Source of the DNA: an uncultured Syntrophobacterales bacterium
GTDB lineage: Bacteria; Desulfobacterota; Syntrophia; Syntrophales; UBA5619
DNA: 64,000 bases
NCBI GenBank assembly: GCA_903928915.1
Contig: CAIYSL010000098.1
Span: 35,179-99,178, forward strand
Direction: 5' to 3'
The notes beneath the pieces were generated by a model, which was not told the DNA's origin, did no database searches, and saw nothing but the letters and a program-made list of their open reading frames with translations. The position numbers were made by a program, and so were the translations under genes. The first letter of the stretch is position 1; each line of letters opens with the position of its first letter. Shown in pieces: positions 27,515-47,577 of the stretch.

Positions 27515-27524
27515 ACCTCGCATC

Positions 27525-27547
27525 GTCCGCCGTCAAAGGCGGCGGGC
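27525..27547 (+). terminator. possible terminator hairpin after the amidohydrolase gene
   Basis: GTCCGCCG-tcaaagg-CGGCGGGC (8 bp including one G.U), 11 nt after the stop. No U-tract follows, so support is weak. Confidence 0.3.
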
Positions 27548-27749
27548 ATCGCCCGTGAGTCCTGCGATGCGGCCGGGACGATCAAATTCCTTGCAAATAC
27601 AGCCTTCCTATAGTTCAATTCTCGCCGGTCGGTATGAGCGAAGAAGCGCGGAGGGGAAGCCGGTCGAGGTCCGGAACCGCACCTGCGCCAGCGTCACGGT
27701 CTCAGCGGTTCCCCGGGGGATCGGGGATACGTTGTCAAGACAGGGATGT

Positions 27750-28091: not shown

Positions 28092-28369
28092 GCGGCTCTC
28101 CTTGTAACGCCGTTGCCTGCCGGTACGGCGCTTCCGTCCCGTCCACGCCGATTCATTTTCCGCCGGATCATACCGTCCCGGGAGGCGGGGCGGCCGTGCC
28201 GAAGGCGCCGGTGGCCGCTTGCTGACGCAGACGGCCCTCTTATACCGTAACTCCCGTAAGATGACAAGACAGGACCGTACCCCGGAACCGCAGGAGAAGC
28301 GGCACCCCCGGCGGACGGCACTCCGCAAGAGAGGTAACAACCAACCTGCAATCCGCGCCAATATCCCCC

Positions 28370-28398
28370 TTGTAACCTTATTAATTAGGTGATAAAAA
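28370..28398 (+). promoter_or_regulatory. candidate promoter plus near-palindromic operator of the repressor gene
   Basis: TTGTAA (28370-28375), 17-nt spacer, TAAAAA (28393-28398). The spacer contains the 16-bp near-palindrome ACCTTATTAATTAGGT (28375-28390, 14/16 symmetric). The predicted transcript would begin next to ATG 28404, so it may be leaderless. Confidence 0.35.
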
Positions 28399-29363
28399 GA
28401 AACATGCCTGTGTCCATGAAAAAAATTGCCCGGCGAAGAATCGCAATCGGCATGACCGTCTCGGAATTTTGCCGGCGCGTCGGCATCTCCCGGAAGGCCT
28501 ACTACGATTGGGAAAAGAGGGCTGCTCCGCTCGCGCCGAAATACGCACAACTCGTCTCAGGGGTACTCGGGATCGCAATCGACGACCTGTCGGAGGAGGC
28601 TAACGGGCAGATGACTGATACGCATGCGGCAGTGCGACGTTTCGACATCCACGAGGTGAAAGGCCGGACCCGGTGGGCCATCGATCACATAATCACCGCG
28701 CATGCATTATCGAATGCGAAGCTCGCCAAGATCCTGGGGCTGTCAACCTCTACCGTCGATAGTTACCGGCGCGGCATCAAGACCCCCAAATTCGAGACTC
28801 TTGCCTTCATGCAGACAACCTACCGAATAAGCCTGGATTGGATGGTCGACGGTCTCGGCAGCCAATTCACGGATATTCGGGCCGCGGAGCTGTTCTCCGC
28901 TCCCCCGGCGAAGTGCGCGGGACCCGACGCCGGAAATGACGATGCAGCGCTGCCTCCCGGCGAATTCGTGTTCATCCCCCAGATGGCCGGAACCACCAGC
29001 CGGGGAGGGCTGGCGCCGGATGCGGCTACGGAAATGCGGATCGCCTTCCGCCGGGATTGGATCGCCCGCAAGGGGCTTCCGCAGGATATGTCCATCATCA
29101 AGGTACAGGGGGACAGCATGGAGCCGACCCTCCAGTCCGGCGACCTGGTGCTGGTGGACCACAGCAAGGATACGATCACCCGGGGCGGCCTTTTTGCGAT
29201 CACCATCGACCAGGAGATCCTGATCAAGCGGATTCAACCCCTCATGGGCCAAAAATTACTCGTTATTTCAGACAATTCAAAATACACCTCCCTCGAAATC
29301 GCCGCCGAGGAGATCCACATCAACGGGAAAGTAATCTGGTTTGCCCGGGAACTGGAGAGATGA
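28389..29363 (+). CDS. CI/LexA-type repressor: two HTH domains plus C-terminal S24 self-cleaving peptidase domain
   Basis: 324 aa. Alternative starts at ATG 28404 or 28416. XRE-type HTH (MTVSEFCRRVGISRKAYYDWEK). Second CI-like HTH (LSNAKLAKILGLSTSTVDSYRRG...ISLDWMVDGLG). S24 motifs GDSMEPTL and ILIKRI. G+C is visibly lower than in the flanking DNA. Confidence 0.85.
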   Translation: MIKRNMPVSMKKIARRRIAIGMTVSEFCRRVGISRKAYYDWEKRAAPLAPKYAQLVSGVLGIAIDDLSEEANGQMTDTHAAVRRFDIHEVKGRTRWAIDHIITAHALSNAKLAKILGLSTSTVDSYRRGIKTPKFETLAFMQTTYRISLDWMVDGLGSQFTDIRAAELFSAPPAKCAGPDAGNDDAALPPGEFVFIPQMAGTTSRGGLAPDAATEMRIAFRRDWIARKGLPQDMSIIKVQGDSMEPTLQSGDLVLVDHSKDTITRGGLFAITIDQEILIKRIQPLMGQKLLVISDNSKYTSLEIAAEEIHINGKVIWFARELER

Positions 29364-29438: not shown

Positions 29439-29467
29439 TTGACAACCGTCAAATTTTGACCTTGTAT
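29439..29467 (+). promoter_or_regulatory. candidate promoter/operator of the ABC-fdrA-arcC operon
   Basis: TTGACA (29439-29444), 17-nt spacer, TTGTAT (29462-29467). The -35 is part of the perfect palindrome TTGAC-aacc-GTCAA (29439-29452). A third TTGAC lies at 29456-29460. Confidence 0.4.
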
Positions 29468-29513
29468 GGGGCCAGGAACAGCAATCTCCGCTGCGAAAGG
29501 AATCGGTCAGCCC

Positions 29514-32094: not shown

Positions 32095-33008
32095 ACGAGA
32101 TGCTTTTCATCAGCATGCTGTCCGGCGCGATCCTTTCCGGCACCCCGCTCCTGTACGCGACCCTGTCCGAGCTGATCGGGGAACGGGCCGGGATCATCAA
32201 CCTCGGCCTGGAGGGGGTCATGCTGATCGGGGCGGTGGTGGGATTCGTGACGACGGTGCAATTCGGCAATCCGGTGCCGGGCCTGATCGCGGCCGCCCTG
32301 GCCGGGGCCCTGTTCAACATGATCTTCGCGTTTATCGTGATCTCCCGGCGCGCCAACCAGCTCGCCAGCGGCCTGGCGCTGATGTTCTGCGGCGTCGGCC
32401 TGAGCGCACTCATCGGCGCCCCCTTCATCGGCCGCCGGATCGAGGGATTGAGCCAGGTCCGGATCCCCCTGGCATCCGATCTCCCCTTTTGGGGACGCGC
32501 CTTTTTCCAATACGACATCCTGGTGCTGCTGGCGATCCCGACCGCGGTTGCCGTCTGGTGGCTTCTGTTCAAGACCCGCTGGGGCTTGAGCGTCCGCGCC
32601 GTCGGAGAAAACCCGACCGCTGCCTATGCGGCGGGCAGGAATCCCCACCTGGTGCAGTATCAGGCCCTGCTCATTTCCGGATTCCTGGGAGGGGTTGCCG
32701 GCGCACATCTCTCCCTGGCCCTGGCGCACACCTGGGCCGAATGGATGACGGCGGGACGCGGGTTCTTCTCCGTGGCCCTCGTGATCTTTGCGAAATGGCA
32801 CCCGCTGCGGGCGATCGCCGGCGCGCTGCTGTTCGGCGGGGCGATCTCCCTGCAGCTGCAGATGCAGGCCCGGGGGGTTCCGGTTTCCTCCTTCCTCCTG
32901 GACATGCTTCCCTATGGATTAAGCCTGGCCGTTCTCATCCTCTGGAGCAGGGCCCGCCGGTCCGCAGTGCCCGGCAGTTTGGGGCGGGTGTTTCAGGGGA
33001 CGGAATGA
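32091..33008 (+). CDS. ABC transporter permease (second permease)
   Basis: ATG 32091 overlaps the previous stop (ATGA). [44 protein letters not shown] is the typical branched-chain/ribose-type permease N-terminus. Confidence 0.85.
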   Translation: MNEMLFISMLSGAILSGTPLLYATLSELIGERAGIINLGLEGVMLIGAVVGFVTTVQFGNPVPGLIAAALAGALFNMIFAFIVISRRANQLASGLALMFCGVGLSALIGAPFIGRRIEGLSQVRIPLASDLPFWGRAFFQYDILVLLAIPTAVAVWWLLFKTRWGLSVRAVGENPTAAYAAGRNPHLVQYQALLISGFLGGVAGAHLSLALAHTWAEWMTAGRGFFSVALVIFAKWHPLRAIAGALLFGGAISLQLQMQARGVPVSSFLLDMLPYGLSLAVLILWSRARRSAVPGSLGRVFQGTE

Positions 33009-33066
33009 GCGGGGTCACGGTAACGGTTCGGCGATTGAAAACGACAGAGGCATGAAAGGAGAACGC

Positions 33067-34167
33067 ATGAAAAACACGGCACGTCTCATCCTGCGGGAGT
33101 TGGCGATTCTGGCCAGCGCACTCTTGGCCCTGGGAACGGTTGTTCCTTCCGCCGCGCAGGCGCAGGAAAAACTGAAGGTGGGCATCGTCCATATCGGCTC
33201 CATCCACGATGCCGGCTATAACCAGGCCCATGCGGAGGGGGTGCAGATCATGAAGAAGAATCTGCCCAATGTGGAGGTCATCCAGGTCGAGAATGTCCCG
33301 GAAGGGGCGGACGCGGAACGGGTCATGGAGAACATGATCAAGCAGGGCGCAAAGCTGATCATCCCCGCGAGCTTCGGGTTCATGGACCCGGCGCTGCGGG
33401 TGGCCAAGAAGTACCCGGAGGTGAAGTTCGTCCATCCGGGCGGGTATAAGCTCGCCCCGAACATGGGCACCTACTGGGCCAGCACCCCCGAGGCCTTCTA
33501 CCTGATGGGGATCGCGGCGGGCAAGACCACCAAGACGAACAAGGCGGGATACGTGGTCGCCCTGCCGATCAGCTTTTTCCTGGCCAACGTCAACGCCTTC
33601 CAGCTCGGCGCCCGGTCGGTCAACCCCAGGTTCGAAACCCGCGTGGTCTTCATGGGAACCTTCCTCGACGCCCCGAAGGAGGCCATCGCGGCGAATGCCA
33701 TCCTCGACATGGGCGCGGACGTCCTGGGGGTGATCGTCGACTCCCCGATTGCGGTCGTGCAGGCAGCGGAAAAGCGCGGCGCCTACTCGATCGGCTACCA
33801 CTACCTGGGGGTGCAGAAATTCGCGCCCAAAGGGTGGATCAGCGGTATCGCCTTTACCTGGGGCGAACTGTACACCCGGTTTGCCAAACAGGTCATGGAC
33901 GGCACCTGGAAGAGCGAGGCCCTGTTCGGGAACCTGAGCAGCGACTACCTGACGATTTCCCCCTTCGGTCCGGCAGTGTCGGCGGATGCGGTAAGAATGG
34001 TCAACGACACGAAGCGGGAGTTCATCGCCGCCCGGAAGCATGTCTTCGCGGGCCCGCTGAAGGACAACAAGGGGGCGGAGCGGGTGAAGGCCGGGGAGGT
34101 GTTCCCCCTGCAGGGGATCGGGAAGATGGACTGGCTGGTCGAGGGGGTCATCGGGCAGCCCAAGTAA
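33067..34167 (+). CDS. BMP-family (basic membrane protein/PnrA-like) ABC substrate-binding protein
   Basis: ATG 33067 after SD AAAGGAGAA. Signal peptide, then KLKVGIVHIGSIHDAGYNQAHAEG, the BMP lipoprotein-family pattern. Confidence 0.85.
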   Translation: MKNTARLILRELAILASALLALGTVVPSAAQAQEKLKVGIVHIGSIHDAGYNQAHAEGVQIMKKNLPNVEVIQVENVPEGADAERVMENMIKQGAKLIIPASFGFMDPALRVAKKYPEVKFVHPGGYKLAPNMGTYWASTPEAFYLMGIAAGKTTKTNKAGYVVALPISFFLANVNAFQLGARSVNPRFETRVVFMGTFLDAPKEAIAANAILDMGADVLGVIVDSPIAVVQAAEKRGAYSIGYHYLGVQKFAPKGWISGIAFTWGELYTRFAKQVMDGTWKSEALFGNLSSDYLTISPFGPAVSADAVRMVNDTKREFIAARKHVFAGPLKDNKGAERVKAGEVFPLQGIGKMDWLVEGVIGQPK

Positions 34168-34183: not shown

Positions 34184-35131
34184 ATGATCCGCACGCGGGC
34201 GGACGATTCCGCCGCCTTGCTCTGCCAGGCGGAATGCATCGGGACCAGGGCGAAATCCCTGCTGGCCCTGCCGGGATTCTCCGGCCGGGTGGCTGCGGCC
34301 CTCGCCGACGTCGCCTACCTGACCGGGCGAGACGGTGAGGTCCTGTGGCTGTTTTGGGAAGCGGTGCCGCTCCACGGCCGCGGCATCGGCCTTTCCTTCC
34401 CGCCGGATTGCCTCCGCTCGGGCCAGCCCTTCCGGGTGGAGGGGCAGGATCTTGCCGTCGGCGGAAGGCTGGTGATCGCCCTCGGTCGGGCACGGGAATG
34501 GACCCCCGCTTCCCCCGGACCGGGGGACGTGGAACCGCTGGCCGGGCTGCAGGAGGCGGCCCGACGGTTGTTGGGAGCCCTGTGCCCGGCGATCGGCCCC
34601 GGCGAGCCCGGCGGGGTGATGCGCGGCCTTGCCTCGCTCTGTACCGGAGGCGACGGGGCGCCCTGTCCGTGCGAGGCGCGGCAGCTCCCGTTTCTGGCCC
34701 CGGTTTTCGACCTGATGGGGCAGTGTCTCTCCGGGGGGTTGACCGGAATCGAGTCCCGCGCCCGGGAACTTATCGGCCTCGGCCCGGGATTGACCCCCTG
34801 CGGGGACGATTTTCTCGGCGGCCTTCTGTTTGCGGCCTCCTGGCTGCGGAACGCCTATCCCGGAAACCCGGGCGTGGCTGCGCAGCCCACGGGCGCACTG
34901 GTGCGATGGGCGCACAACCGGACGCATCCCGTCAGCCATGCCATTCTGGCCGATCTGGCCGACGGACAGGGGCCTGAACCGCTCCATGCCCTGCTCTGGC
35001 TGCTCGCAAGCGGGGAAGAGCGCGGCGGCCGCACGATCGCGGCGGCAGATCGTCTGGCACGGATCGGAACTACGACCGGATGGTACATCCTGGCGGGCGT
35101 ACTTACCTGGTTACTCTCGGTTGACGCATAA
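34184..35131 (+). CDS. ylbF: DUF2877-domain protein (YlbF/AllH-like)
   Basis: 315 aa. GLGPGLTPCGDDFLGGLLFA and HPVSHAILADLADGQ motifs, as recalled for the YlbF family. Sits immediately upstream of the ylbE and fdrA homologues. Confidence 0.7.
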   Translation: MIRTRADDSAALLCQAECIGTRAKSLLALPGFSGRVAAALADVAYLTGRDGEVLWLFWEAVPLHGRGIGLSFPPDCLRSGQPFRVEGQDLAVGGRLVIALGRAREWTPASPGPGDVEPLAGLQEAARRLLGALCPAIGPGEPGGVMRGLASLCTGGDGAPCPCEARQLPFLAPVFDLMGQCLSGGLTGIESRARELIGLGPGLTPCGDDFLGGLLFAASWLRNAYPGNPGVAAQPTGALVRWAHNRTHPVSHAILADLADGQGPEPLHALLWLLASGEERGGRTIAAADRLARIGTTTGWYILAGVLTWLLSVDA

Positions 35132-35149: not shown

Positions 35150-36406
35150 ATGGATGAAATCAAGCAAAAGATAGAAACGGCAAACGCGGAGACGGTGCGC
35201 CGCATCAACGAGGCCGATCCCGTCCTGGTGGATATCGCCCCTGCCGGCGAGGTCATCCCCGGTCTACACGACCGGATGGTCCTCCACTCGGGCCCCCCGG
35301 TGGATTGGCAGCGGATGAGCGGCGCGCAGCGGGGCTCCATGCTGGGGACCGCGCTGTTCGAAGGCTGGGCGAAGGACGCCGGGGAGGCGAACGACCTGTT
35401 CGCCAGCGGTGCGATCCGGTTTGAGCCCAACCACACCCACCAGGCCGTCGGTCCGATGGCCGGGACCATCTCCGCGTCGATGCCGGTCTGGATCGTGGAG
35501 AACAAGGCCTTCGGCAATCGCGCCTTCTGCCGGCAGGTGGAGCCGAGCCAGCAGTTCGGTAACTACCGTGACGACGCCCTCCAGGGGCTGCGTCTGTGGA
35601 GGGACCTCTGGGCCCCGGCCCTCAAGGCGGCCCTCGGCCGGATGGGAGGCCTCCCCCTGAAACCGATCATCGCCAAGGCGCTCCAGATGGGCGACGAGTT
35701 GCACAACCGCCCCGTTGCCGCGTCGAGCCTCTTTGCCAATGCCATGGCCTGCCCGCTGATCGAGGCAAACGTCCCGAAGGATCGGCTGCTGGCCACCCTC
35801 AGGTACATCACGAACCATGAGCTGATCTTTCTCGCCCTGGCGATGGCGGCCGCCAAGGCATCGGCAGACCCCGCAACGGGCGTCGAGTACAGCACGGTGG
35901 TCACGGCCATGGCCCGCAACGGCACCGACTTCGGCATCCGGGTCAGCGGCCTGGGCGAGGAATGGTTCACCGCCCCGGCGCCCAGGGCCGAGGGGCTGTA
36001 CTTCCCCGGGTACACCAAAGAGGACGGCGGCGCGGATATGGGCGATTCGGCCATCACCGAGACGGTCGGCTGGGGGGGGTTCGTCCTCGCCGGGGCAACC
36101 GGGATCCTCGCCCTGGTGGGGGGGACGCCGGAGGAGGCCATGTCCTACAGCAGGGATATGCGGCGGATCACCGTAACCGCCAGCCCGAACTACCGGATGC
36201 CCATCCTGGGCTTTCAGGGTGCGCCGGTGGGAATCGATATCCGCAAGGTGGTCCAGACCGGCATCGTGCCGGTGATCGACACGGCGATAGCCCACCGCGA
36301 GCCCGGCCACTCCATCATCGGCGCCGGCATCGTCCGGGCCCCGCTGGACTGCTTCAAGAAGGCGCTCCTGGCCTTCAGCAGGAAGTACCAGCCGAATCGA
36401 ACCTGA
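35150..36406 (+). CDS. ylbE: DUF1116-domain protein (YlbE/AllG-like)
   Basis: 418 aa. SD AAGGAGGAGAA. Size, position between the ylbF-like and fdrA-like genes, and overall pattern (VLHSGPPVDWQRMSG...) fit the YlbE family. Confidence 0.75.
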   Translation: MDEIKQKIETANAETVRRINEADPVLVDIAPAGEVIPGLHDRMVLHSGPPVDWQRMSGAQRGSMLGTALFEGWAKDAGEANDLFASGAIRFEPNHTHQAVGPMAGTISASMPVWIVENKAFGNRAFCRQVEPSQQFGNYRDDALQGLRLWRDLWAPALKAALGRMGGLPLKPIIAKALQMGDELHNRPVAASSLFANAMACPLIEANVPKDRLLATLRYITNHELIFLALAMAAAKASADPATGVEYSTVVTAMARNGTDFGIRVSGLGEEWFTAPAPRAEGLYFPGYTKEDGGADMGDSAITETVGWGGFVLAGATGILALVGGTPEEAMSYSRDMRRITVTASPNYRMPILGFQGAPVGIDIRKVVQTGIVPVIDTAIAHREPGHSIIGAGIVRAPLDCFKKALLAFSRKYQPNRT

Positions 36407-36421: not shown

Positions 36422-37978
36422 ATGTGCACCGGAATTGTGATCAGAAAGAATGAATACCACGACTCGGTCTTCCTGATGCGCACCGCCGGGCGCATCTCCG
36501 CGCAGGAGGGCATCGCCCAGGCCCTCCTGTTCATGGGCACCGAGAAGAACAAGGAGCTCCTCGCGACCCTGGGTTTTCCTGCCGGGGAGCTGGCGCCCGC
36601 CGGACCCACCGACCTCATCCTGGCGGTTCGGGCGCAGACCCGGCCGCGCCTGGCGGCTGTCCTGGAAAACCTCGACGGGTGGCTGCGGGTCGAGCCGGGC
36701 CGGGGAACCGTGCCGGCGGCGCGGGACCTGGACGAAGCCCTGATCCGCCTCCCCCGGGCCAACCTGGCCGTCATCTCGGTGCCCGGGATGTACGCGGCCG
36801 ACGAGGCACAGAAGGCCCTGGAACGGTCGCTGAACGTCTTTGTGTTCAGCGACAATGTCCCGGTGGAACGCGAGCGCGCCCTCAAGCGGTATGCCAGCGA
36901 CCGCGGCCTGATCGTCATGGGGCCCGATTGCGGAACGGCGATCATCGGCGGCATCGGCATCGGCTTCGCCAATGCGGTCCGGCGGGGCCCCGTCGGCGTC
37001 ATCGGCGCTTCGGGCACGGGGATCCAGGAGTTCACCACGCTGGTGCACCGGGCCGGCTCGGGCATCTCCCAGGCAATCGGAACCGGCAGCCGGGATGTTT
37101 CCGACGCCGTGGGGGGCATCTCGCTGCTGGCGGCGCTGCGGGCCCTTGCGACGGACGCGGCCACCGGGACCATCGCCGTGGTATCCAAACCGCCGGGACC
37201 GCGGACCCTGGAGGCGCTCCTCCCGCGGGTCCTTCAGTCCACCAAACCCGTGGTGCTCTGTTTCCTGGGGGGGACCGAACGACCCGTCTCCCTCACCGGG
37301 CCCCACCGGACTGCGGCCACGCTCGACGAGGCCGCTGCCCTGGCGGTTCGGAACGCCACCGGCAATCTCCCGCCGGACGGCGAACCGAGCAGCGCCGGGT
37401 TGGCGGACCGCGCCCTGGGCGAGCGCAAGGCCATGCATCCGGCGCAGCGATACGTCCGGGGCCTTTTTGCGGGCGGTACGTTCTGCTATCAGGCCCAGCA
37501 GATCTTCCGGGATGCGGGGGTCGCCGCGTACTCCAACGCCCCGATCGCCGGGAACCCCGGACTGACCGATCCGCTGCAAAGCCGCGAGCACAGCCTGATC
37601 GACCTGGGCGCCGATGAATTCACCGCCGGGCGCCCCCACCCGATGATGGATTCGCGCCTGCGCCGGGAGCGAATCCTCGCCGAAGCGGCCGATCCGGCGG
37701 TGGCGGTGCTGCTCGTCGACTTCCTCCTGGGGTTCAATGCCGCGGCCGATCCGGCGGGCGAACTGGCCCCGGCAATTGCCGAAGCCAAGGGGGAGGCGGA
37801 GCGGCACGGGAGGTTCCTCTCCGTTGTCGCGTCGGTGTGCGGTACCGAGGAAGACCCGCAGGGGCTCGACCGGCAGGTCGCCTGCCTTGAGGAAGCCGGG
37901 GTCGTCGTTCTGCCCAGCAGCGCTCAGGCCGCCCGGTTTGCGGCGCTGCTGGCCGTTCAGGCAGGAGGAGCGGGCTGA
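36422..37978 (+). CDS. fdrA: FdrA/AllF-like protein (succinyl-CoA-synthetase-alpha-like fold), lacking the usual C-terminal segment
   Basis: 518 aa. MCTGIVIRKNEYHDSVFLMR..., GPDCGTAIIGG, VIGASGTGIQE and GRPHPMMD match the FdrA sequence as I recall it. Confidence 0.85.
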   Translation: MCTGIVIRKNEYHDSVFLMRTAGRISAQEGIAQALLFMGTEKNKELLATLGFPAGELAPAGPTDLILAVRAQTRPRLAAVLENLDGWLRVEPGRGTVPAARDLDEALIRLPRANLAVISVPGMYAADEAQKALERSLNVFVFSDNVPVERERALKRYASDRGLIVMGPDCGTAIIGGIGIGFANAVRRGPVGVIGASGTGIQEFTTLVHRAGSGISQAIGTGSRDVSDAVGGISLLAALRALATDAATGTIAVVSKPPGPRTLEALLPRVLQSTKPVVLCFLGGTERPVSLTGPHRTAATLDEAAALAVRNATGNLPPDGEPSSAGLADRALGERKAMHPAQRYVRGLFAGGTFCYQAQQIFRDAGVAAYSNAPIAGNPGLTDPLQSREHSLIDLGADEFTAGRPHPMMDSRLRRERILAEAADPAVAVLLVDFLLGFNAAADPAGELAPAIAEAKGEAERHGRFLSVVASVCGTEEDPQGLDRQVACLEEAGVVVLPSSAQAARFAALLAVQAGGAG

Positions 37979-38151
37979 TGTCCGAGAAGATCGAGCAGTT
38001 GTTGGAGAACGGCCCGCGGGCCGTCAACATCGGAGTGGCGGATTTCGCCGACAGCCTGCACCGCCAGGGGGCGGACGTCGTCCAGGTCACCTGGACCCCC
38101 CCGGCGGACGGCGACGCGGAAATGGACGCGATCCTCGCGCAGCTCCTCTGA
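37978..38151 (+). CDS. 57-aa ORF resembling the detached C-terminal segment of FdrA
   Basis: ATG overlaps the fdrA stop (TGATG). MSEKIEQLLENGPRAVNIGVADFADSLHRQGADVVQVTWTPPADGDAEMDAILAQLL resembles the C-terminal ...VINIGL..FA..L......VV...W.P.AGG... tail of E. coli FdrA (from memory). High third-position G+C. Confidence 0.55.
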   Translation: MSEKIEQLLENGPRAVNIGVADFADSLHRQGADVVQVTWTPPADGDAEMDAILAQLL

Positions 38152-38225: not shown

Positions 38226-39200
38226 ATGAAGAACAATCGTCAGCGGATCGTGATTGCCCTGGGGGGAAACGCCATCAAGCTTCCCCGCCAACAGGGGACC
38301 CATGAGGAGCAGCGGGCCGGCATCCGGTCCGCATCGCTGTGCATCCTGGAATTCATCAAGAACGGGTTCGACGTCGTCATCACCCACGGGAACGGCCCCC
38401 AGGTGGGAAGCCTGCTCATGCAGCAGGAGGCGGTCGCCTCGCAGCTGCCCCCCCAGCCGATGGACATCTGCAACGCCATGACCCAGGGGCAGTTGGGGTA
38501 CATGCTGCAACAGGCGCTGATGAACGAACTCAAGGCGTTGAACCTGAATTTCAACGTGGTGACGATGATCGCGCAGGTGCTGGTGGATCGGAACGATCCG
38601 GCCTTCGCGAATCCCGCCAAACCGGTGGGCCCCTTCTACGATGCCGCGGCCAAGGAACGGCTCGCCGCGGAACGGGGCTACCTGATGAGCCGGGTCCTGC
38701 CGCAGGGAGAGCGACCCTTCCGCCGCCTGGTGCCTTCGCCGGACCCGATCAGGATACTGGAGGTGAAGGCCCTGAAGAAGGTCGTCGACGCGGGCATGAT
38801 CGTCATCGCCGCCGGCGGCGGCGGCGTTCCGGTCATTCTCAGCGAACAAGGGGAGTTCGAGGGGATCGAGGGGGTCATCGACAAGGACCTGTCCGGAGAA
38901 AAGCTGGCGGAGGCGGTGGCCTCTGATTTCTTCATGATCCTCACGGACGTGCCGAACGTGAAGATCGGGTTCGGCAGTCCGGAGGAACGTCCGCTCGGTC
39001 GCCTGGACGTGCGGGAAGCCAGGCGCTATCTGCAGGAAGGACAATTCCTGGCCGGCTCCATGGCCCCCAAGGTCCTGGCCTGCATCCGCTTCATCGAATA
39101 CGGGGGCGACGAGGCGATCATCACCTCGCCGGACAAGGCGTGGGCTGCCCTGGAGCGGAACGAGGGGACCCACATCGTTCCCGGGAGGGGGGAGCCATGA
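38226..39200 (+). CDS. arcC: carbamate kinase
   Basis: ATG 38226 after SD GAGGGAAG. MKNNRQRIVIALGGNAI...VITHGNGPQVG...GGGGVPV are carbamate kinase signatures. Confidence 0.9.
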   Translation: MKNNRQRIVIALGGNAIKLPRQQGTHEEQRAGIRSASLCILEFIKNGFDVVITHGNGPQVGSLLMQQEAVASQLPPQPMDICNAMTQGQLGYMLQQALMNELKALNLNFNVVTMIAQVLVDRNDPAFANPAKPVGPFYDAAAKERLAAERGYLMSRVLPQGERPFRRLVPSPDPIRILEVKALKKVVDAGMIVIAAGGGGVPVILSEQGEFEGIEGVIDKDLSGEKLAEAVASDFFMILTDVPNVKIGFGSPEERPLGRLDVREARRYLQEGQFLAGSMAPKVLACIRFIEYGGDEAIITSPDKAWAALERNEGTHIVPGRGEP

Positions 39201-40144
39201 AGCACACCCACATCATCGAGGCCCAGCAGTTCAACAAACGGGCCCTGCAGGAGATACTGAGCGCGGCCGACCACATCCGGGAACGTGCGGAGCGGAACCT
39301 GCCGCTGGACCTGCTGAAGGGGAAGCTGCTGGGCAACCTCTTCTACGTACGGTCGATGCGCACCAATCTCTCCTTCGACTGTGCCATGAAGCGATTGGGC
39401 GGACAGGTGACCCCGATCGATTTCCCGGAGGAGTTCTCCTCCGAGCTGAGCGGGGGAGGCTTCGAAGACACGATACGGGTCGTAAGCTCGCTGGTGGACC
39501 TGATCGTACTGCGCCACTATCAGAGCGGTTCGGCGAAGCGGGCGGCGGACATATCGTCCGTTCCGGTCATCAACGGCGGGGACGGACCCGCGCAGCATCC
39601 GACCCAGGCGCTGATCGATCTGTACTGCATCGAAAAACTCAAAGGGGGGATCGACGGCGTCTCCATCGCCTTTATCGGCGACCTGCTGAACAGCCGCACC
39701 GTCCGGTCGCTGGTGTATTTTCTGGCGAAGTACTCGGGGATCAAGGTCTCCTTCGCCTCGCCGCGGGCGCTGCGGATCGGGGAGGATACGCAGGGGTACC
39801 TGCGGGAAAACGGCATTCCCTATGGCGAATCAGTGGACAACGCCGAAGAATTGCAGGACATCGTCTCAGGGGCGGACATTCTCTACCTCACCCAGATACC
39901 CGCGGCCCGCTTCACCGCGCATCCCGAAGACTACGCCCGCTCCCGGGAAATCTTCCGGATCGACCGGGAGTTACTGAAGATCATGAAGAAGGACACCTAC
40001 ATCATGCACCCGCTGCCCCGGGATTATGAGCTTCCCGGGGAAGTGGACGGGGACCCCCGGGCGGTGTATTTTGACCTGATCAGATACGGACAGTTCCTGC
40101 GGATGGGGCTGCTCTGCCTGGTGCTCGGGGTGTCGGCCGACTGA
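39197..40144 (+). CDS. aspartate/ornithine carbamoyltransferase-fold protein with non-canonical active-site motifs
   Basis: ATG overlaps the arcC stop (ATGA). 315 aa. HPTQ and HPLPR motifs are retained, but SMRTN replaces STRTR, SGGGFEDT replaces KGE(T/S)LxDT, and LTQIP replaces TRVQ. Confidence 0.8.
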   Translation: MKHTHIIEAQQFNKRALQEILSAADHIRERAERNLPLDLLKGKLLGNLFYVRSMRTNLSFDCAMKRLGGQVTPIDFPEEFSSELSGGGFEDTIRVVSSLVDLIVLRHYQSGSAKRAADISSVPVINGGDGPAQHPTQALIDLYCIEKLKGGIDGVSIAFIGDLLNSRTVRSLVYFLAKYSGIKVSFASPRALRIGEDTQGYLRENGIPYGESVDNAEELQDIVSGADILYLTQIPAARFTAHPEDYARSREIFRIDRELLKIMKKDTYIMHPLPRDYELPGEVDGDPRAVYFDLIRYGQFLRMGLLCLVLGVSAD

Positions 40145-40193: not shown

Positions 40194-41669
40194 CTACATG
40201 AAGATCTCGACCGACCGCTGGGCGATCAGCAGGAATCCGCGGGGAAAGATCCCCATGTGGAAGAGCGCCCAGACGCTGACGGCGATGACCACCCCGTAGG
40301 CCGGCGAGAAATCCGGTCGTCCCGCCGGTTCGGCATCGGCCGCCGCTTCGCGGAAATACATGTACATCACGACCCGGAGGTAGTAGTAGGCGGCCACGAC
40401 GCTGTTGAGCACCCCGATGACGGCCAGCCAGTAGTACTTCGCCTTGATGGCCGCGCTCAGGACGTAGAATTTCCCCATGAACCCCGCCAGGGGCGGCATC
40501 CCTGCCAGCGACAGGAGGAAGACCGTCATCGCGATCGCGATCAACGGGTGCCGGCCGGCCAGCCCCGCGTAGTGCTCGATCCCCGTCCGCTGCCTGCCCT
40601 TCTGCCCGAGGATGATCACCACGGTGAAGGCGCCGATGTTCATGAAGGTGTACACGAGGATGTAGAAGAGGATGCCCACCGAGGAAAAGAGGTCGCCCAC
40701 CACGAAGGCGATCAGGATGTACCCGGCATGGGCGATGCTCGAATAGGCGAGCATCCGCTTCACGTCATCCTGCACCAGGGCGGTGATGTTGCCGATCGTC
40801 ATCGTCGCCACGGCGATCAGCCAGAGCATGCCCGACCACGCCCCGAGCAGGGGCAGGAAGGCCGTGTAGAACACCCGGAGGAAGGCGCCGAATGCGGCGG
40901 CCTTGATCCCCGTGGCCATGAAGGCGGTGATCGACGTGGGCGCCCCTTCGTACACGTCGGGCGTCCACATGTGGAAGGGGACCGCTGCGGTCTTGAACCC
41001 GAACCCGACGACAAGCATGGCGATCCCGATCATGAACAGGGGGGTCAGCTGGAACCGCCCCGAGACGATGTAGTCGGCGATCTCGCGGATGTCCAGCAGG
41101 CCCGTCGCCGCGTACACCAGCGCGATCCCGTACAAGAGAAAGGCCGTGGCGAAGGCCCCGAGCAGGAAGTACTTGAGCGAGGCCTCTGCCGAGCGGGGGT
41201 TGCCGCTCAGCATCCCGCAGAGGACGTAGATGGCGATCGACATCACCTCGAGACCGATGAAGATCGTCACGAAGTGGGTCGACGACACCATGATCATCAT
41301 CCCCAGGACCCCGAACAACGTGAGGGCGTAGTACTCCCCCTTGACGATATCCTCGCGCTCCACGTACCGCAGCGACAGGAGCGTCACGAGGATCGCCACG
41401 ATCAGCGCCAGCGCCTTGAAGAAGGTGCCGAATGTGTCGATCGTGTACAGGCCGTTGTAGACGGCGGCGCCGGCGTTCCAGAGCGACAGGGTGAACAGCA
41501 GGGCCAGACCGCTGCCGACGAGCGCCACGGCGCCTGCGATCGTTCCGACGATCGCCCGCCTGCCGAATGCGCCCAGCAGGAGCGCGGTCATCGCGCTGAC
41601 CGTTATGATCAGTTCGGGGAGAATCGGCCCGAACGCCAATTCGGGTATTTTCACGAGCATGGTTTCCAT
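40194..41669 (-). CDS. nuoN: NADH-quinone oxidoreductase subunit N
   Basis: 491 aa, about 14 TM antiporter-like subunit. Last gene of the nuo operon. Confidence 0.9.
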   Translation of the reverse strand: METMLVKIPELAFGPILPELIITVSAMTALLLGAFGRRAIVGTIAGAVALVGSGLALLFTLSLWNAGAAVYNGLYTIDTFGTFFKALALIVAILVTLLSLRYVEREDIVKGEYYALTLFGVLGMMIMVSSTHFVTIFIGLEVMSIAIYVLCGMLSGNPRSAEASLKYFLLGAFATAFLLYGIALVYAATGLLDIREIADYIVSGRFQLTPLFMIGIAMLVVGFGFKTAAVPFHMWTPDVYEGAPTSITAFMATGIKAAAFGAFLRVFYTAFLPLLGAWSGMLWLIAVATMTIGNITALVQDDVKRMLAYSSIAHAGYILIAFVVGDLFSSVGILFYILVYTFMNIGAFTVVIILGQKGRQRTGIEHYAGLAGRHPLIAIAMTVFLLSLAGMPPLAGFMGKFYVLSAAIKAKYYWLAVIGVLNSVVAAYYYLRVVMYMYFREAAADAEPAGRPDFSPAYGVVIAVSVWALFHMGIFPRGFLLIAQRSVEIFM

Positions 41670-41675
41670 CCTCTG

Positions 41676-43214
41676 TTACGGTGCGCCAAGCGGTCCCTGC
41701 ACGGCGGGGGCCCCCATGGCGGCGATCCGTGCCTTCACGTACTTGAGGTAGCCGGCCGACGATGCGTCCATCTTCCGGAGGAACAGGCCGGGATACAGCC
41801 CCATCAGAAACACGAACAGGACGATCGTGGCGAGGATGAGGGTCTCGCGCTTCGTCAGGTCGGCAAGCAGCCGGTTCGCCTCCTGGGTAATCTTGCCGAA
41901 CATCACCCGCTGGAACATCCAGAGCATGTAGACGGCCCCGAGGATCACCCCGGTGGTGGCCAGCACGCCGTAGGTGACGTTGCTCCGGAAGGCGCCCAGG
42001 AGGATCAGGAACTCCCCCACAAACCCGTTCGTCCCGGGCAGCGCGATCGAGGAAAGGGTGATGATCATGAAGAAGACGGCCAGCCGGGGCATCACCGTGG
42101 TCAGTCCGCCGAAGTCCGCGATCATCCGGGTGTGCCGCCGCTCGTAAATCATCCCGACGACGAGGAACAGCCCCCCCGTGCTGATGCCGTGGTTGAGCAT
42201 CTGGTAGAGCCCGCCCTGGAGCCCCTGCATGTTGAAGGCGAAGATGCCGAGCATCACGTACCCCAGGTGGCTCACCGACGAGTAGGCGATCAGCCGCTTC
42301 AGGTCGGTCTGCATAATGCACATGATGGCGCCGTAGACGATGCCGATGATGGCCAGCCAGGAGATCAGCGGCGTCGCCGCGACGACGGCGGCGGGGAACA
42401 GCGGGATGGCAAACCGCAAAAACCCGTACACCCCCATCTTCAGCAGGACGCCGGCCAGGATGACGCTCCCCGCGGTCGGGGCCTCGGTATGCGCGTCGGG
42501 CAGCCAGGTGTGGAACGGGAACATCGGCACCTTGATCGCGAAGGACAGCGCGAAGGCCGCAAACAGCCAGTACTGCTTGACGGCCGGCAGGCTCGCCCGG
42601 GCGAGGGTGAAGACGTTGAAGGTATAGACCCCCGTCTCGGCGGCGTAGTGGAAGTAGAGGACCATGATGGCCAGGAGCATCAGCACGCTCCCCACCATCG
42701 TGAACAGGAAGAACTTGATCGCCGCGTAGATCCGCCGCGGGCCTCCCCACACCCCGATCAGGAGGTACATCGGGATCAGCATCAGCTCCCAGAAGATGTA
42801 GAACAACACCATGTCGAGGCTGCAGAGGGCGCCGATCATCGCCGTCTCGAGGACGAGGAAGGAGACGTAGTACTCCTTGATCTTGGTCTCGATGGCCTTC
42901 CAGGAGCAGAGGACGCAGACGATGGTCAACAGCGTCGTGAGCAGCACCAGGAGCATGCTGATGCCGTCGATTCCCACGAGGTAGCTGATGCCGAATTCGG
43001 GGAACCACTCCCGCTGTTCCACGAACTGCATCTGGACGGCCCGCTCGTCGAACCAGAAGAACAGCGGCAGGGAGAGGATGAACTCTCCGATCGTCAGGAC
43101 CAGCGCCGCCGCCTTGATGGTGAGCGTCTGCCGGCGCGGCAGCAGCATCAGCACCAGGGAGCCGGCGAGCGGCAGCAGGATCAGCGCACTCAAATAGGGA
43201 AAGGGTTCATTCAT
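41676..43214 (-). CDS. nuoM: NADH-quinone oxidoreductase subunit M
   Basis: 512 aa. Antiporter-like, with motifs FAIKVPMFPFHTWLPDAH and AYSSVSHLG. Confidence 0.9.
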   Translation of the reverse strand: MNEPFPYLSALILLPLAGSLVLMLLPRRQTLTIKAAALVLTIGEFILSLPLFFWFDERAVQMQFVEQREWFPEFGISYLVGIDGISMLLVLLTTLLTIVCVLCSWKAIETKIKEYYVSFLVLETAMIGALCSLDMVLFYIFWELMLIPMYLLIGVWGGPRRIYAAIKFFLFTMVGSVLMLLAIMVLYFHYAAETGVYTFNVFTLARASLPAVKQYWLFAAFALSFAIKVPMFPFHTWLPDAHTEAPTAGSVILAGVLLKMGVYGFLRFAIPLFPAAVVAATPLISWLAIIGIVYGAIMCIMQTDLKRLIAYSSVSHLGYVMLGIFAFNMQGLQGGLYQMLNHGISTGGLFLVVGMIYERRHTRMIADFGGLTTVMPRLAVFFMIITLSSIALPGTNGFVGEFLILLGAFRSNVTYGVLATTGVILGAVYMLWMFQRVMFGKITQEANRLLADLTKRETLILATIVLFVFLMGLYPGLFLRKMDASSAGYLKYVKARIAAMGAPAVQGPLGAP

Positions 43215-43236
43215 CTACTCGGTACCTCTCGGTTCC

Positions 43237-45225
43237 TTAAAACATCGGGATGACGACCAGATACGCGACGACGACGATCGCGCCGACGATGATCGCGAAG
43301 GCGTACTCCTGGACGTAGCCCGTCTCGACCCTCCGCAGCCGTCCGGCCAGCCGCTGCAGCGCATCGGCGGTGCCGTTGATCGCCCCCTCGATGATCCAGC
43401 CGTCGGCGACCTTCAGCAGGAAGGCGCCCAGCCGCTGCACCCCCCGGACGAACACCCGTTCGTACAGCTCATCCACGAAATACTTGTTTTCCACCCACCG
43501 GTGCAGGCCGGCGAAGCTTGCCGTGAACCGCCCGGGCAGGGCGGGGTTTTTGACATAGAACAGGTAGGCCAGGAAGATCCCCACCAGGGCGATCGCCACC
43601 GACAGGGCCATCAGCAGCATCTCCAGCGACGATTCATGGCCTGCGGCGCCGCCGGAGGCCCAGGCGGTGCTCACGAACCCGAAGGCCGTCTGCGGCTGCG
43701 CCGGCGCCGGGGCGCCCTGGCCGAACACCGGGGCCAGAAACTGCTCGATGGCGTTCGAGCCCCCCAGCACGTGGGGTACGCCCACGTACCCGCCGACGAG
43801 CGACAGGGCGGCGAGGATCACGAGCGGGACGGTCATCACCCGGGGCGACTCATGGATGTGGTGCTTCACCTCGTCGGAGGCCCGGCAGGTTCCGTGGAAG
43901 GTGCCGAAGAGCAGGCGGAACATGTAGAAGGCCGTCATCCCCGCCGTCAGCGCGGCGAGGCCCCAGATCAGCAGATAACCCTGCGAGGCGCTGAAGGCCT
44001 TCCAGAGGATCTCGTCCTTGCTGAAGAACCCGGAAAAGCCGGGGATTCCGGCGATGGCGAGGCAGGCGATCAGGAAGGTCCAGTAGGTGACCGGGGTCTT
44101 CTCCCTGAGGCCGCCCATGTTCCGCATGTCCAGCTCGCCGCTCATGGCGTGCATCACGCTCCCCGCCCCGAGGAACAGGAGCCCCTTGAAGAAGGCATGG
44201 GTCATCAGGTGGAAGATGCCCGCCGCGTAGGCCCCGACCCCCATGGCGATGAACATGAACCCGAGCTGACTGATCGTGGAGTAGGCCAGGATCTTCTTGA
44301 TGTCGTTCTGGGCGAACCCGATCGAGGCGGCGAAAAAGGCGGTGAGAACGCCGATCGTGGCCACCACCAACAGCGTGTCCGGCGCCATGCGGTACAGGAA
44401 GTTGAGCCGAGCGATCATGTAGACCCCCGCGGTCACCATCGTCGCCGCATGGATCAGCGAGCTGACCGGCGTAGGGCCTTCCATGGCATCGGGAAGCCAG
44501 ACGTACAGCGGGATCTGGGCCGACTTCCCCACTGCGCCGACGAAGAACAACAGCGTGATGATCGTGACGAGCGGTCCGTCGAGGAGCTGGGCGTGCTGCC
44601 CGATCTGAGCGAAATTCAGCGTCCAGACCCCCTTCATCCCCAGCGAGACGAACAGCAAGAAGATGCCGATCAAAAACCCGAAATCCCCGACCCGGTTCAC
44701 GATGAAGGCCTTCTTGCCCGCGTCGGACGCGGAATCCTTCTCGTACCAGAACCCGATCAGCAGGTAGGAGCAGAGCCCCACCCCCTCCCAGCCGACGAAC
44801 ATCACGAGGAGGTTGTTGCCCGTGACCAACAGGAGCATCATGAACACGAACAGGTTCAGGTACAGGAAAAACCGCTTGAACCCGGGATCGTCGTGCATGT
44901 AGCCGACCGAGTAGACGTGGATCAGGAACCCCACGCCCGTGACGACCAGGCACATAATCACCGACAGGGCGTCGAGGCGGAACCCGATCGCGACCTGGAA
45001 CTGGCCCGAGGTGATCCAGGGGTACAGATCCATCTCGAACACCCGCCCCGCGCCGGGCAGGCGGAGGAACTCGGCAAACACCAAGGCCGCGGCGATGAAC
45101 GAGCAGAAAATGGCCAAGCAGGCGACCCAGGAGACCGCAGACTTGGAGAGCCTGCCGCCGAAGGCGCTGTTGAACAGAAATCCCGCGAGGGGGAAAAAAG
45201 GGATCAGCCAGATGTAGTCTGCCAT
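43237..45225 (-). CDS. nuoL: NADH-quinone oxidoreductase subunit L
   Basis: 662 aa. WEGVGLCSYLLIGFW, LPDAMEGPTPVS, and a long C-terminal amphipathic/TM extension. Confidence 0.9.
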   Translation of the reverse strand: MADYIWLIPFFPLAGFLFNSAFGGRLSKSAVSWVACLAIFCSFIAAALVFAEFLRLPGAGRVFEMDLYPWITSGQFQVAIGFRLDALSVIMCLVVTGVGFLIHVYSVGYMHDDPGFKRFFLYLNLFVFMMLLLVTGNNLLVMFVGWEGVGLCSYLLIGFWYEKDSASDAGKKAFIVNRVGDFGFLIGIFLLFVSLGMKGVWTLNFAQIGQHAQLLDGPLVTIITLLFFVGAVGKSAQIPLYVWLPDAMEGPTPVSSLIHAATMVTAGVYMIARLNFLYRMAPDTLLVVATIGVLTAFFAASIGFAQNDIKKILAYSTISQLGFMFIAMGVGAYAAGIFHLMTHAFFKGLLFLGAGSVMHAMSGELDMRNMGGLREKTPVTYWTFLIACLAIAGIPGFSGFFSKDEILWKAFSASQGYLLIWGLAALTAGMTAFYMFRLLFGTFHGTCRASDEVKHHIHESPRVMTVPLVILAALSLVGGYVGVPHVLGGSNAIEQFLAPVFGQGAPAPAQPQTAFGFVSTAWASGGAAGHESSLEMLLMALSVAIALVGIFLAYLFYVKNPALPGRFTASFAGLHRWVENKYFVDELYERVFVRGVQRLGAFLLKVADGWIIEGAINGTADALQRLAGRLRRVETGYVQEYAFAIIVGAIVVVAYLVVIPMF

Positions 45226-45299
45226 CGATTCATATCCTCGTTAAGCTCCGGCCCCGGCCGGGTCGGTCTCTGTGCGCAGCCTGCCGCTGCGGTACGGCG

Positions 45300-45611
45300 T
45301 CACCCCTTGAGCAGGTCGATTTCGTAGGGATCGATCGTGTTGCGCTGCCGGAAGACCATGACGAAGATCGCCAGTCCGACCGCGGCCTCCACGGCGGCGA
45401 CGGTCATGATGAAGAACACGAACACGGAACCGTCCATCGACGCGAGGGTATTGGCGGCGGCGATGAACACGAGGTTCACGGCGTTCAGCATCAGCTCGAT
45501 GCACATGAAGACCACGATCACGTTCCTGCGCAGGATCGCCCCGACCGCCCCGATCGTGAAGAGGACGCCGCTCAAGATGAAACAGACCGTGGTAGAGAGT
45601 TCCGGCAACAT
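45300..45611 (-). CDS. nuoK: NADH-quinone oxidoreductase subunit K
   Basis: 103 aa, three TM helices. [11 protein letters not shown] motif. Confidence 0.9.
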
Positions 45612-45623
45612 AGGGCTCCTTTG

Positions 45624-46157
45624 TTACTTCCGCTTGGAGATGACCACCGCGCCGACGATGCCCACCAGAAGCAGGATCGACGCGATCTCGAAGGGAAAGA
45701 GGTACTCGCCGTACAGAAGCGCGCCGACCGTTTTCACGTTTCCCGCGCTGTTGACGGCGGCCGTGGAAAGGCCGCCGCTCTTGCCGGTCACCTGGAACAG
45801 GAGCGCCCCGAACAGCAGCTCGGCGAGCAGAATCGCGGTGATCACCGCCCCGGCGATCCGGACCGTCTTCGAACGCCGCGCCGCGGCGGGTGCGCTCTCG
45901 TCGCCCCGCTCCATGTGGACGAGCATGATCACGAACAGGATCAGCATCATGATCGCGCCGGCGTACACCATCACCTGCGCCACGGCGATGAACTGGGCGT
46001 TGAGCAGCAGGTAGATGACGGCCATCACGACGAAGGCGGCGATCATCCACAGCGCGCTGTGGATCGGGTTTTTCCGGGTCACCATCATCAGCGAGGTGAC
46101 GATCACCGCGGCGGCCAGCGCGATGAAGGCGAGGTCTTTCAATCCTAGTGCATCCAT
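45624..46157 (-). CDS. nuoJ: NADH-quinone oxidoreductase subunit J
   Basis: 177 aa membrane protein. YAGAIMMLILFVIM motif. Correct operon position. Confidence 0.85.
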   Translation of the reverse strand: MDALGLKDLAFIALAAAVIVTSLMMVTRKNPIHSALWMIAAFVVMAVIYLLLNAQFIAVAQVMVYAGAIMMLILFVIMLVHMERGDESAPAAARRSKTVRIAGAVITAILLAELLFGALLFQVTGKSGGLSTAAVNSAGNVKTVGALLYGEYLFPFEIASILLLVGIVGAVVISKRK

Positions 46158-46160
46158 AGA

Positions 46161-46568
46161 TCAGCCCTTATTGGAGGAAAGCAGCCTTTCCTTCGTCAGC
46201 AGAAAATCCGCGCGGGTCTCGTGAACGTACTCGTAATCCTGGCCCAGCCGGATGGCGTTGACCGGGCAGGCCTCCTGGCAGAAGCCGCAGAAGATGCAGC
46301 GCAGGGCGTCGATCTCGTAGGCGCCGGGAGTGCGGGTGCCGTCCGCGCGCTCGCTGATCGCAAGCGATATGCACCGCGCCGGACAGACGGCGACGCACAG
46401 TCCGCAGGCGACGCAGGTGGTCTCCCCGGCGGGGTTCTTCTCGAAATAGTGCATCCCCCGCCACCGCGGCGAGATGGCACGCCTCTCCTCGGGATACCGG
46501 ATCGTAACCTGCGGGGAGAAGAACATCTTCAGCGTCAGTCGAAGGCCTTTGAGCAGGGGGAGGATCAT
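46161..46568 (-). CDS. nuoI: NADH-quinone oxidoreductase subunit I (2x[4Fe-4S])
   Basis: Two CxxCxxCxxxCP motifs (CVACGLCVAVCP, CIFCGFCQEACP). Start set at ATG 46568, preceded by AGGAGAG right after the nuoH stop; the track start 46598 overlaps nuoH. Confidence 0.9.
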   Translation of the reverse strand: MILPLLKGLRLTLKMFFSPQVTIRYPEERRAISPRWRGMHYFEKNPAGETTCVACGLCVAVCPARCISLAISERADGTRTPGAYEIDALRCIFCGFCQEACPVNAIRLGQDYEYVHETRADFLLTKERLLSSNKG

Positions 46569-46581
46569 CGTCACCACTCTC

Positions 46582-47568: not shown

Positions 47569-47577
47569 TGCGATCCC

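Follow-up and report, generated by a model that had tools for sequence, protein, structure and literature searches.

A candidate catabolic transcarbamylase of the aspartate carbamoyltransferase branch, encoded directly behind carbamate kinase

Fermentative ATP formation through carbamoyl phosphate (CP) is known for few ureides, namely citrulline, carbamoylputrescine, allantoate, oxalurate and, since 2025, diureidopropionate, and reviews of the transcarbamylases explicitly anticipate further catabolic members (PMC4581275, PMC6022934). The ATCase-like UGTCase Rxyl_2847 from Rubrobacter, which adjoins a carbamate kinase, converts allantoate and phosphate to ureidoglycine and CP (PMC4016543). The three groups of pseudo-ATCases (aspartate carbamoyltransferase, ATCase) described by Barba et al. 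(2013) keep the STRT motif and carry HPLA, H[ST]LP and HSLP, respectively; their RxQ motif has become AIA/AIS/SIA, GX[SC] or VXP, and in group 1 carbamate kinase and allantoinase are adjacent (PMC4016543). In E. coli, AllFGH is an experimentally defined oxamate carbamoyltransferase whose genes accompany that of the carbamate kinase AllK (PMC11326118), and YgeW, paired with the carbamate kinase YqeA, acts in the reductive uric-acid pathway by phosphorolysis of a ureido-amino acid that a hydantoinase produces (10.1101/2025.05.19.654654). Here we analyze a stretch of 64,000 nucleotides (hereafter the window) from contig CAIYSL010000098.1 of an uncultured Syntrophobacterales bacterium, which encodes an ATCase-fold protein, named pATC, behind the carbamate kinase gene arcC. 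On balance, we favor the view that pATC is a working transcarbamylase, trimeric and from the ATCase branch, which has been retuned off aspartate/carbamoyl-aspartate, is probably catabolic, and would feed CP to the kinase encoded upstream. In the literature on pseudo-ATCase and ATCase-like proteins, oxamate transcarbamylase, and oxalurate, we found no description of the pATC family.

The pATC open reading frame (ORF) is stop-free, and its product contains both transcarbamylase domains (Pfam OTCace_N, 130 bits; OTCace, 89 bits) as well as all the ATCase fold markers listed in an earlier note made from the DNA letters alone (VLRH, HPTQ, GDLLNSRTV, and HPLPR). The protein shares about 43-50% identity with genuine ATCases. 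It scores 261 on the TIGR00670 model, above the cut-off of 236.95, and 239 on NF002032, below the cut-off of 263, while the ygeW model gives only 32 bits. The comparison with PyrB by structure prediction, which the note had proposed, was run: the AlphaFold2 model has a predicted local distance difference test score (pLDDT) of 88.7, and Foldseek gives a template modeling (TM) score of 0.92 to the Arabidopsis ATCase 6ypo. Among solved ATCases, the best HMMER matches are Arabidopsis PYRB (6ypo, 280 bits) and the M. jannaschii enzyme (2rgw, 224 bits), and every motif is aligned with both without gaps. SMRTN of pATC faces STRTR of the solved enzymes, SSELSGGGFEDT faces SSAAKGETLEDT, and YLTQIPAARF faces YQTRIQRERF. 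MAFFT alignment with E. coli PyrB, using a reference sequence checked to be 100% identical to PDB 1ekx_A, places the residues in the identical register. Since the two methods agree, the substitutions that had been read by eye in SMRTN, the 80s loop, and LTQIPAAR are real and do not come from a shifted alignment.

In the numbering of mature E. coli PyrB, used throughout, the changes in pATC are E50V, T53M, R56N, K84S, E86G, T87G, G166S, R229Q, and Q231P, of which the Glu50 replacement had been overlooked. The residues S52, R54, T55, S80, R105, H134, Q137, and R167 and the HPLPR motif are retained. Thus, the FxExSTR signature is gone through E50V and T53M (FYVRSMRT in pATC), the RxQxER motif is replaced by T-Q-I-P-A-A-R, and the 80s loop retains S80 and has a serine in place of K84, the whole giving the signature FYV-x-S-M-R-T / HPTQ / GDLxNSRT / T-Q-I-P / HPLPR. 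The active sites of ATCases are shared between chains, S80 and K84 coming from the neighboring chain. R229 and Q231 bind the β-carboxylate of aspartate, R167 clamps its α-carboxylate, E50 and R234 serve domain closure, and R56 is treated as no direct CP ligand. The aspartate-binding site is thus predicted to be lost in pATC. The CP site, by contrast, looks intact from its residues, T53M being no apparent bar to activity because S-M-R-T is also the native motif of the active N-acetylornithine transcarbamylase (PMC4581275, PMC4016543). S-L-R-T is native to the active N-succinylornithine transcarbamylase, so Thr53 is dispensable, and position 84 is filled by Gln or Trp in other transcarbamylases (PMC4581275; PMC4016543 Table 1). 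Of the earlier proposal that both CP and aspartate ligands were substituted, the aspartate half stands, but the CP half goes too far, as S52, R54, T55, R105, H134, Q137, and HPLP are all kept.

To define the family, we took the best 120 protein clusters from a search of 5.8 billion proteins; it comprises at least these 120 clusters. All 120 representatives carry the pATC signature, with identities to the window protein from 84% down to 53%. R229 is replaced by Q in every cluster, Q231 by P in 118, and G166 by S in 119, while E50 has mostly become V and L267F is found in most members. Conservation is close to 100% for S52, R54, T55, R105, H134, Q137 (of HPTQ), R167, HPxP, and S80 of the neighboring chain, and the third motif reads HP[LF]PR. 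The pattern VP[IV]IN[GA]GDG is common to the family and canonical ATCases. Position 53 is M, I, L, V, or N, and positions 53, 56, and 84 differ by sub-clade: the window-like sub-clade has T53M with A, T, S, or V in place of K84, a second one has T53I/L/V, and a third one (sub-clade C) has T53N yet retains R56 and K84, being the sole sub-clade with K84. As far as sequence can tell, the essentially fixed Q229, P231, and S166 speak for a new specificity and against decay. These observations agree with the earlier statement that pATC cannot be a normal ATCase or ornithine carbamoyltransferase (OTCase), R229, Q231, E50, and K84 all being replaced in pATC and Q229 and P231 being fixed across the family. 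A different carbamoyl acceptor, one of the options then raised, is the best reading.

In a library clustered at 50% identity (1.84 billion representatives), the family shrinks to about one representative, P0121 (53%), and the next matches inspected are nearly all canonical ATCases, which have STRTR and TRxQxER and no more than 48% identity. A profile scan of genome contigs with the full-length family alignment gave 80 loci among the matches listed, all of them ordinary ATCases (at most 46% identity). A phylogenetic placement, also suggested beforehand, was made by neighbor-joining only; in this tree, the pATC family forms a separate clade, monophyletic in 60 of 60 bootstraps. Named members bear the taxon labels of Thermodesulfobacteriota or Deltaproteobacteria metagenome-assembled genomes (MAGs), and every one of them is annotated "aspartate carbamoyltransferase." The window pATC sequence itself turns up in metagenomes from lake water, groundwater, and sediment.

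Loci were gathered by exact homolog look-up and by a metagenome scan using an alignment of the family-specific C-terminal half, and their flanks were annotated by tblastn against a 29-protein panel with Pfam and NCBIfam spot checks. A carbamate kinase gene lies directly upstream of pATC, in the same orientation, at all 71 distinct loci with any upstream DNA (53 of 53 when at least 1 kb is available). The gap is at most 15 nucleotides at 55 of the 71 loci, and usually 4-13. At the typical junction in relatives, the kinase ends in ...THIVP*, followed by 11-12 nucleotides with AGGAG or GGGGG and then by ATG. In the window, the coupling to arcC claimed in the earlier note is borne out: the arcC stop TGA, within ...GCCATGA, overlaps the pATC ATG, and GGGAGG stands just 5' of the junction. 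The window arcC (39183-39200) runs five codons (GRGEP) beyond the ...THIVP* stop of its relatives, and the ATGA overlap exists because this stop was lost and five further codons are read. Over 53 loci, kinase identity and pATC identity to the window copies are correlated with r = 0.97, from which it follows that arcC and pATC are inherited as a pair. An apparent arcC-pATC fusion at eight loci turned out to be an artifact of tblastn alignments crossing the stop codon, the junctions keeping THIVP* and the spacer, and no kinase-pATC fusion was found in the loci collected. The constant partner of pATC is carbamate kinase, not AllFGH.

Farther upstream, the gene content varies. Contexts were counted wherever at least 2.7 kb of DNA was available upstream, which held for 36 loci. 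At 15 of these, allF is present, usually in a whole ABC-allH-allG-allF string like that of the window, and at the 21 others no allF lies upstream. Four loci have a γ-aminobutyrate-aminotransferase-type gene, a 105-residue ORF, and an OTCase of catabolic type that passes the OTCase equivalog model. The 105-residue ORF, conserved before the OTCase of the second sub-clade, is without a family match. In two of the OTCases (L087 8030-8968 and L089 5712-6650), NTWHSMG stands instead of DxxxSMG, an Asp to Asn change at the ligand of the ornithine α-amino group, despite which they pass the equivalog model. About 11 loci encode an OTCase, a D-hydantoinase-like amidohydrolase, and a canonical ATCase upstream, some adding a xanthine-dehydrogenase-like enzyme upstream and some PyrE downstream of pATC. 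The canonical ATCase of the sub-clade C loci, two genes upstream of pATC, scores 391 bits on TIGR00670 and has STRTR, KGET, and TRIQKER. OTCase, D-hydantoinase-like protein (402 on TIGR02033, cut-off 393), canonical ATCase, carbamate kinase, and pATC stand in one string in L003 (44-11736), L144-L168, and L172; such a string may represent a supra-operon for carbamoyl phosphate or, alternatively, a catabolic cluster of the "reverse pyrimidine" or purine kind.

The six remaining loci show other contexts: a family III CoA-transferase with a thiamine-diphosphate enzyme; an arginase-family protein with a tripartite ATP-independent periplasmic (TRAP) transporter; an aldehyde:ferredoxin oxidoreductase with a C-N hydrolase and a Liv-type ATP-binding cassette (ABC) transporter; or xanthine dehydrogenase, an allantoinase-like enzyme, an IclR regulator, a 2-oxoacid oxidoreductase, and a GltD-like protein. 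The purine-type cluster L116 has two xanthine-dehydrogenase-like sets, an allantoinase/hydantoinase-like amidohydrolase, a 2-oxoacid oxidoreductase, and a GltD-like protein that best matches a generic NAD(P)-binding subfamily and scores well under the cut-off of the YgfK model. Cyclic amidohydrolases, which yield N-carbamoyl compounds, recur in three different pATC contexts. Allantoinase/hydantoinase-like genes occur only in contexts other than that of the window, and none attains the allantoinase cut-off. An oxalate link (Frc/Oxc) considered for L095 and L107 was dropped, as their CoA-transferase III and thiamine-diphosphate enzyme score under the cut-offs of those models. Family III CoA-transferases near arcC-pATC (L095 3063-4520, L107 621-1880, and L170 2093-3298) share only 35-40% identity and stay below every curated cut-off; their presence may be due to chance in genomes rich in CoA-transferases.

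How pATC would work can be proposed from these elements. The protein probably is catalytic, and its direction probably catabolic: it would split a ureido compound with phosphate into an amine and CP, and would pass the CP to the kinase encoded upstream, which would make ATP from it. In the window, AllFGH and pATC would both supply this kinase, and the operon could thereby draw CP from two kinds of ureido bond. A phosphorolytic, catabolic role is favored because the kinase is useful only with a source of CP and because pATC is the sole transcarbamylase near the kinase at several loci (L095, L107, L116, L128, L132, and L170), where the kinase has no other visible CP source. This role is also favored by the nearly complete conservation of the residues common to active transcarbamylases, even in representatives with only about 53% identity, by the inheritance of arcC and pATC as a pair, by L116, where pATC stands beside the kinase as YgeW does beside YqeA, by the recurring cyclic amidohydrolases, and by the UGTCase precedent. 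The substrate is probably a small ureide whose only carboxylate lies beside the nitrogen that reacts, because R167 is retained while the positive charges of the pocket fall from three (R167, R229, and K84) to one; G166S and L267F would narrow the pocket. The candidates, each of low probability, are in falling order allantoate/ureidoglycine, as in the UGTCase reaction, ureidoglycolate, an N-carbamoyl-α-amino acid made by a hydantoinase-like enzyme, and oxalurate.

Several observations weigh against this assignment. E50 and R234, which serve domain closure in ATCase, are gone from pATC. Another transcarbamylase (AllFGH, OTCase, or ATCase) is already encoded at most pATC loci, and a second CP source is thus not obviously needed there. 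The sub-clades differ from one another at positions 53, 56, and 84, so the specificity of pATC may not be uniform. At L095 and L107, the pATC proteins are 92% identical and the flanks differ; flanks that change between such close relatives are unlike those of a pathway-specific enzyme and also fit a general helper of the kinase. The window operon contains no AllE, AllD, or PucG-type gene, so the link from allantoate or ureidoglycine to oxalurate is missing, which counts against the neatest pathway. Finally, none of the RNA runs checked for the window locus carries it.

The main rival explanation, which we regard as unlikely, is that pATC is a CP-binding partner of the kinase without organic turnover. 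It would bind to the kinase, and perhaps to the primary transcarbamylase as well, either to store or channel the labile CP or to regulate the kinase. Such a role would suit the kinase as sole invariant neighbor beside varying pathway genes, the tight or overlapping gene spacing, the other transcarbamylase already present in most contexts, and the retention of CP ligands with loss of acceptor ligands. It also has a precedent in the channeling between kinase and transcarbamylases in Pyrococcus, where carbamate kinase complexes with OTCase for CP channeling and kinetic evidence of channeling exists with both OTCase and ATCase; in addition, binding to enzymes slows CP decomposition more than 5000-fold (PMC6022934). 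However, the acceptor site is not drifting, Q229, P231, S166, and R167 being essentially invariant; at loci with no other transcarbamylase nearby, the kinase would have no supply of CP if pATC were purely a helper, a binding protein could not shift the unfavorable equilibrium of phosphorolysis, and the lack of any kinase fusion among the loci does not help this explanation either. A further reading, quite improbable in our view, is that arcC-pATC is a self-contained ATP module. In it, pATC would form CP from phosphate and some general nitrogen compound of very small size, with no need of an organic acceptor tied to one pathway; the compound may be, for example, allophanate, urea, or cyanate from CP decay. 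For allophanate, the acceptor would be carbamate, with its carboxylate on the conserved Arg167. Such a module would explain why the pair is unchanged across unrelated ureide, arginine, and purine clusters, and why the acceptor pocket is small and almost uncharged. To our knowledge, CP formation from such small compounds is undescribed for any transcarbamylase.

The earlier note had also suggested a non-catalytic partner of an AllFGH-like complex. That pATC would be a subunit devoted to the AllFGH oxamate carbamoyltransferase, perhaps without catalysis of its own, is suggested by the allH-allG-allF genes that precede arcC-pATC in the window and at 15 of the 36 loci, but this proposal fails on the 21 loci without allF, set against a kinase at 71 of 71, on entire sub-clades that pair with OTCase or canonical ATCase instead, and on the activity of E. 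coli AllFGH in vitro without any pATC-like protein (PMC11326118); we give it very little chance. An equally slim chance is given to mixed trimers of pATC with canonical ATCase, which would throttle pyrimidine synthesis while CP is burned for ATP. This idea, a pure inference, draws on the S80 and K84 that ATCase sites take from the adjacent chain, on the absence of K84 and E86 from the window pATC, and on the canonical ATCase encoded two genes ahead of pATC in sub-clade C. Yet identity to canonical ATCases is only about 43-48%, the sub-clade that sits beside the canonical ATCase is the one that retains K84, and the fully conserved CP site of pATC would be needless in a poison subunit. Least credible of all is that pATC is the ordinary PyrB of the organism, as databases annotate it. 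The TIGR00670 score, the identity of about 43-50% to genuine ATCases, and the absence of a further pyrB homolog from the 64-kb window speak for it. Against it, R229Q, Q231P, E50V, and K84S remove aspartate-binding and site-closing residues, the NF002032 cut-off is missed, the gene stands in a catabolic operon after arcC and not with pyrC or pyrI, and sub-clade C encodes a canonical ATCase at the same locus.

In the window, pATC is the last gene of a plus-strand string whose members are listed in Table 1.

Table 1. Genes of the plus-strand string that ends with pATC, with window coordinates
Feature	Coordinates	Strand	Basis and remarks
XRE helix-turn-helix (HTH)/S24-peptidase (LexA-like) regulator	28389..29363	+	Pfam Peptidase_S24, HTH_3; putative operon member
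ABC transporter double ATPase	29466-31052	+	Pfam ABC_tran
ABC permease 1	31045-32094	+	Pfam BPD_transp_2
ABC permease 2	about 32100-33008	+	Pfam BPD_transp_2
BMP/PnrA-family substrate-binding protein of ABC transporter	33052..34167	+	Pfam PF02608, 144 bits
AllH-like subunit	34184..35131	+	Pfam PF11392 AllH, 57 bits
AllG-like subunit	35150..36406	+	Pfam PF06545 AllG, 252 bits
AllF/FdrA-like subunit (succinyl-CoA-ligase-alpha-like)	36422..37978	+	NF004760 455 vs 433; Pfam Ligase_CoA, CoA_binding
57-residue ORF, detached C-terminal tail of AllF/FdrA	37978..38151	+	FdrA model PRK06091 positions 503-554 of 555
Carbamate kinase arcC, 328 residues	38214..39200	+	TIGR00746 373.7 vs cut-off 358.25; junction sequence
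pATC (ATCase-fold protein), 315 residues	39197..40144	+	Translation, Pfam, NCBIfam, PDB alignments, AlphaFold2 model, conservation

The transporter gene order of the window is repeated at L001, L093, L105, and L121. AllF/FdrA is split, the ATG of the tail ORF overlapping the allF stop by one base (TGATG), and the split-off tail follows allF at all window-like loci. A 54-residue ORF upstream of arcC in L003 was considered as an AllF tail and rejected, being unrelated to the 57-residue tail. The regulator has two HTH regions and an S24 domain and is possibly a substrate-responsive, self-cleaving repressor. Just upstream of it lie an Amidohydro_2-family protein (26456-27514, plus strand) and a 231-residue ORF (27555-28250, plus strand) without Pfam or NCBIfam match; related contigs begin at the transporter, so that the genes at 26456-28250 are at most possible members of the ureide operon. 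The 64-kb window holds no ATCase or OTCase homolog besides pATC, canonical pyrB included. A scan for operon promoters and terminators gave matches no commoner than in shuffled sequence.

On the other side, a convergent nuoN/M/L cluster starts 50 nucleotides downstream of pATC. It belongs to a respiratory-complex-I-like cluster (40194-53167, minus strand) with NuoN/M/L, NuoD, and a NuoG-like molybdopterin protein (47578-49980), and with a fusion of the NuoF 4Fe-4S region to Fer4_20 and Pyr_redox_2 (49977-51929, minus strand). Two plus-strand genes unrelated to pATC encode a 1864-residue hybrid sensor kinase (14299-19893; dCache, PAS, GAF, HisKA, two receivers, and Hpt) and a YgiQ-type radical SAM protein (24463-26580).

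The pATC family is a clean candidate for the catabolic members that were anticipated: its members form one monophyletic clade and share a new, fixed active-site signature, their genes are tied to that of carbamate kinase, and they are present in lake-water, groundwater, and sediment metagenomes. As every named member is labeled aspartate carbamoyltransferase and the window protein passes one curated ATCase model, MAG reconstructions will wrongly credit such proteins to pyrimidine biosynthesis, and an energy-conserving nitrogen pathway would be missed. We propose an annotation rule that would correct the label, T-Q-x-P in place of T-R-x-Q together with arcC upstream.

Of the described systems, pATC shares with PyrB, to which its closest structures 6ypo and 2rgw belong, the fold, the CP-binding residues, R167, and HPLPR, and differs from it by E50V, T53M, R56N, K84S, E86G, G166S, R229Q, and Q231P and by its place after arcC in a catabolic-looking operon with no pyrI or pyrC neighbor. 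The S-x-R-T variant of the CP motif is shared with the N-acetyl- and N-succinylornithine transcarbamylases (S-M-R-T and S-L-R-T), which, unlike pATC, are knotted, have an HCLP motif, are anabolic, and show no close sequence relationship to it. YgeW of E. coli belongs to this knotted branch and has different active-site loops; the likeness to YgeW-YqeA lies in the position of pATC beside carbamate kinase in the purine-type cluster L116 (10.1101/2025.05.19.654654), and the L116 and sub-clade C loci also have xanthine-dehydrogenase- and hydantoinase-like genes, as the YgeW cluster does. With AllFGH-AllK of E. coli, the window operon shares homologs of allH, allG, allF, and arcC and the logic leading from ureide to CP and ATP, whereas the order H-G-F, the split AllF with its 57-residue tail, and the added ABC transporter and pATC set it apart; the AllFGH fold is unrelated to pATC, and E. 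coli has no pATC.

The nearest counterparts are the pseudo-ATCases. Like them, pATC is an ATCase-branch paralog annotated as ATCase that has lost RxQ and kept HPTQ and the universal CP motifs, and it retains the Arg167 equivalent, as they do, UGTCase included. Like the group 1 protein UGTCase, it has carbamate kinase adjoining, at 71 of 71 loci, and it would likewise act in the catabolic direction. Unlike UGTCase, it has no allantoinase in its window, its neighbors there being allHGF and a BMP-type ABC transporter. The family differs from all three groups in having S-[MILVN]-R-T and not STRT, HP[LF]P and not HPLA, H[ST]LP, or HSLP, and Q-I-P and not AIA, GxS, or VxP, and it forms a separate monophyletic clade in the neighbor-joining tree. 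As in the catabolic transcarbamylase-kinase modules, pATC is adjacent to and co-oriented with arcC, with SxRT, R105, HPxQ, and HxLP conserved at close to 100%. Judged by its motifs and its gene neighborhood, the pATC family would in effect be a fourth group of ATCase-branch catabolic transcarbamylases paired with carbamate kinase.

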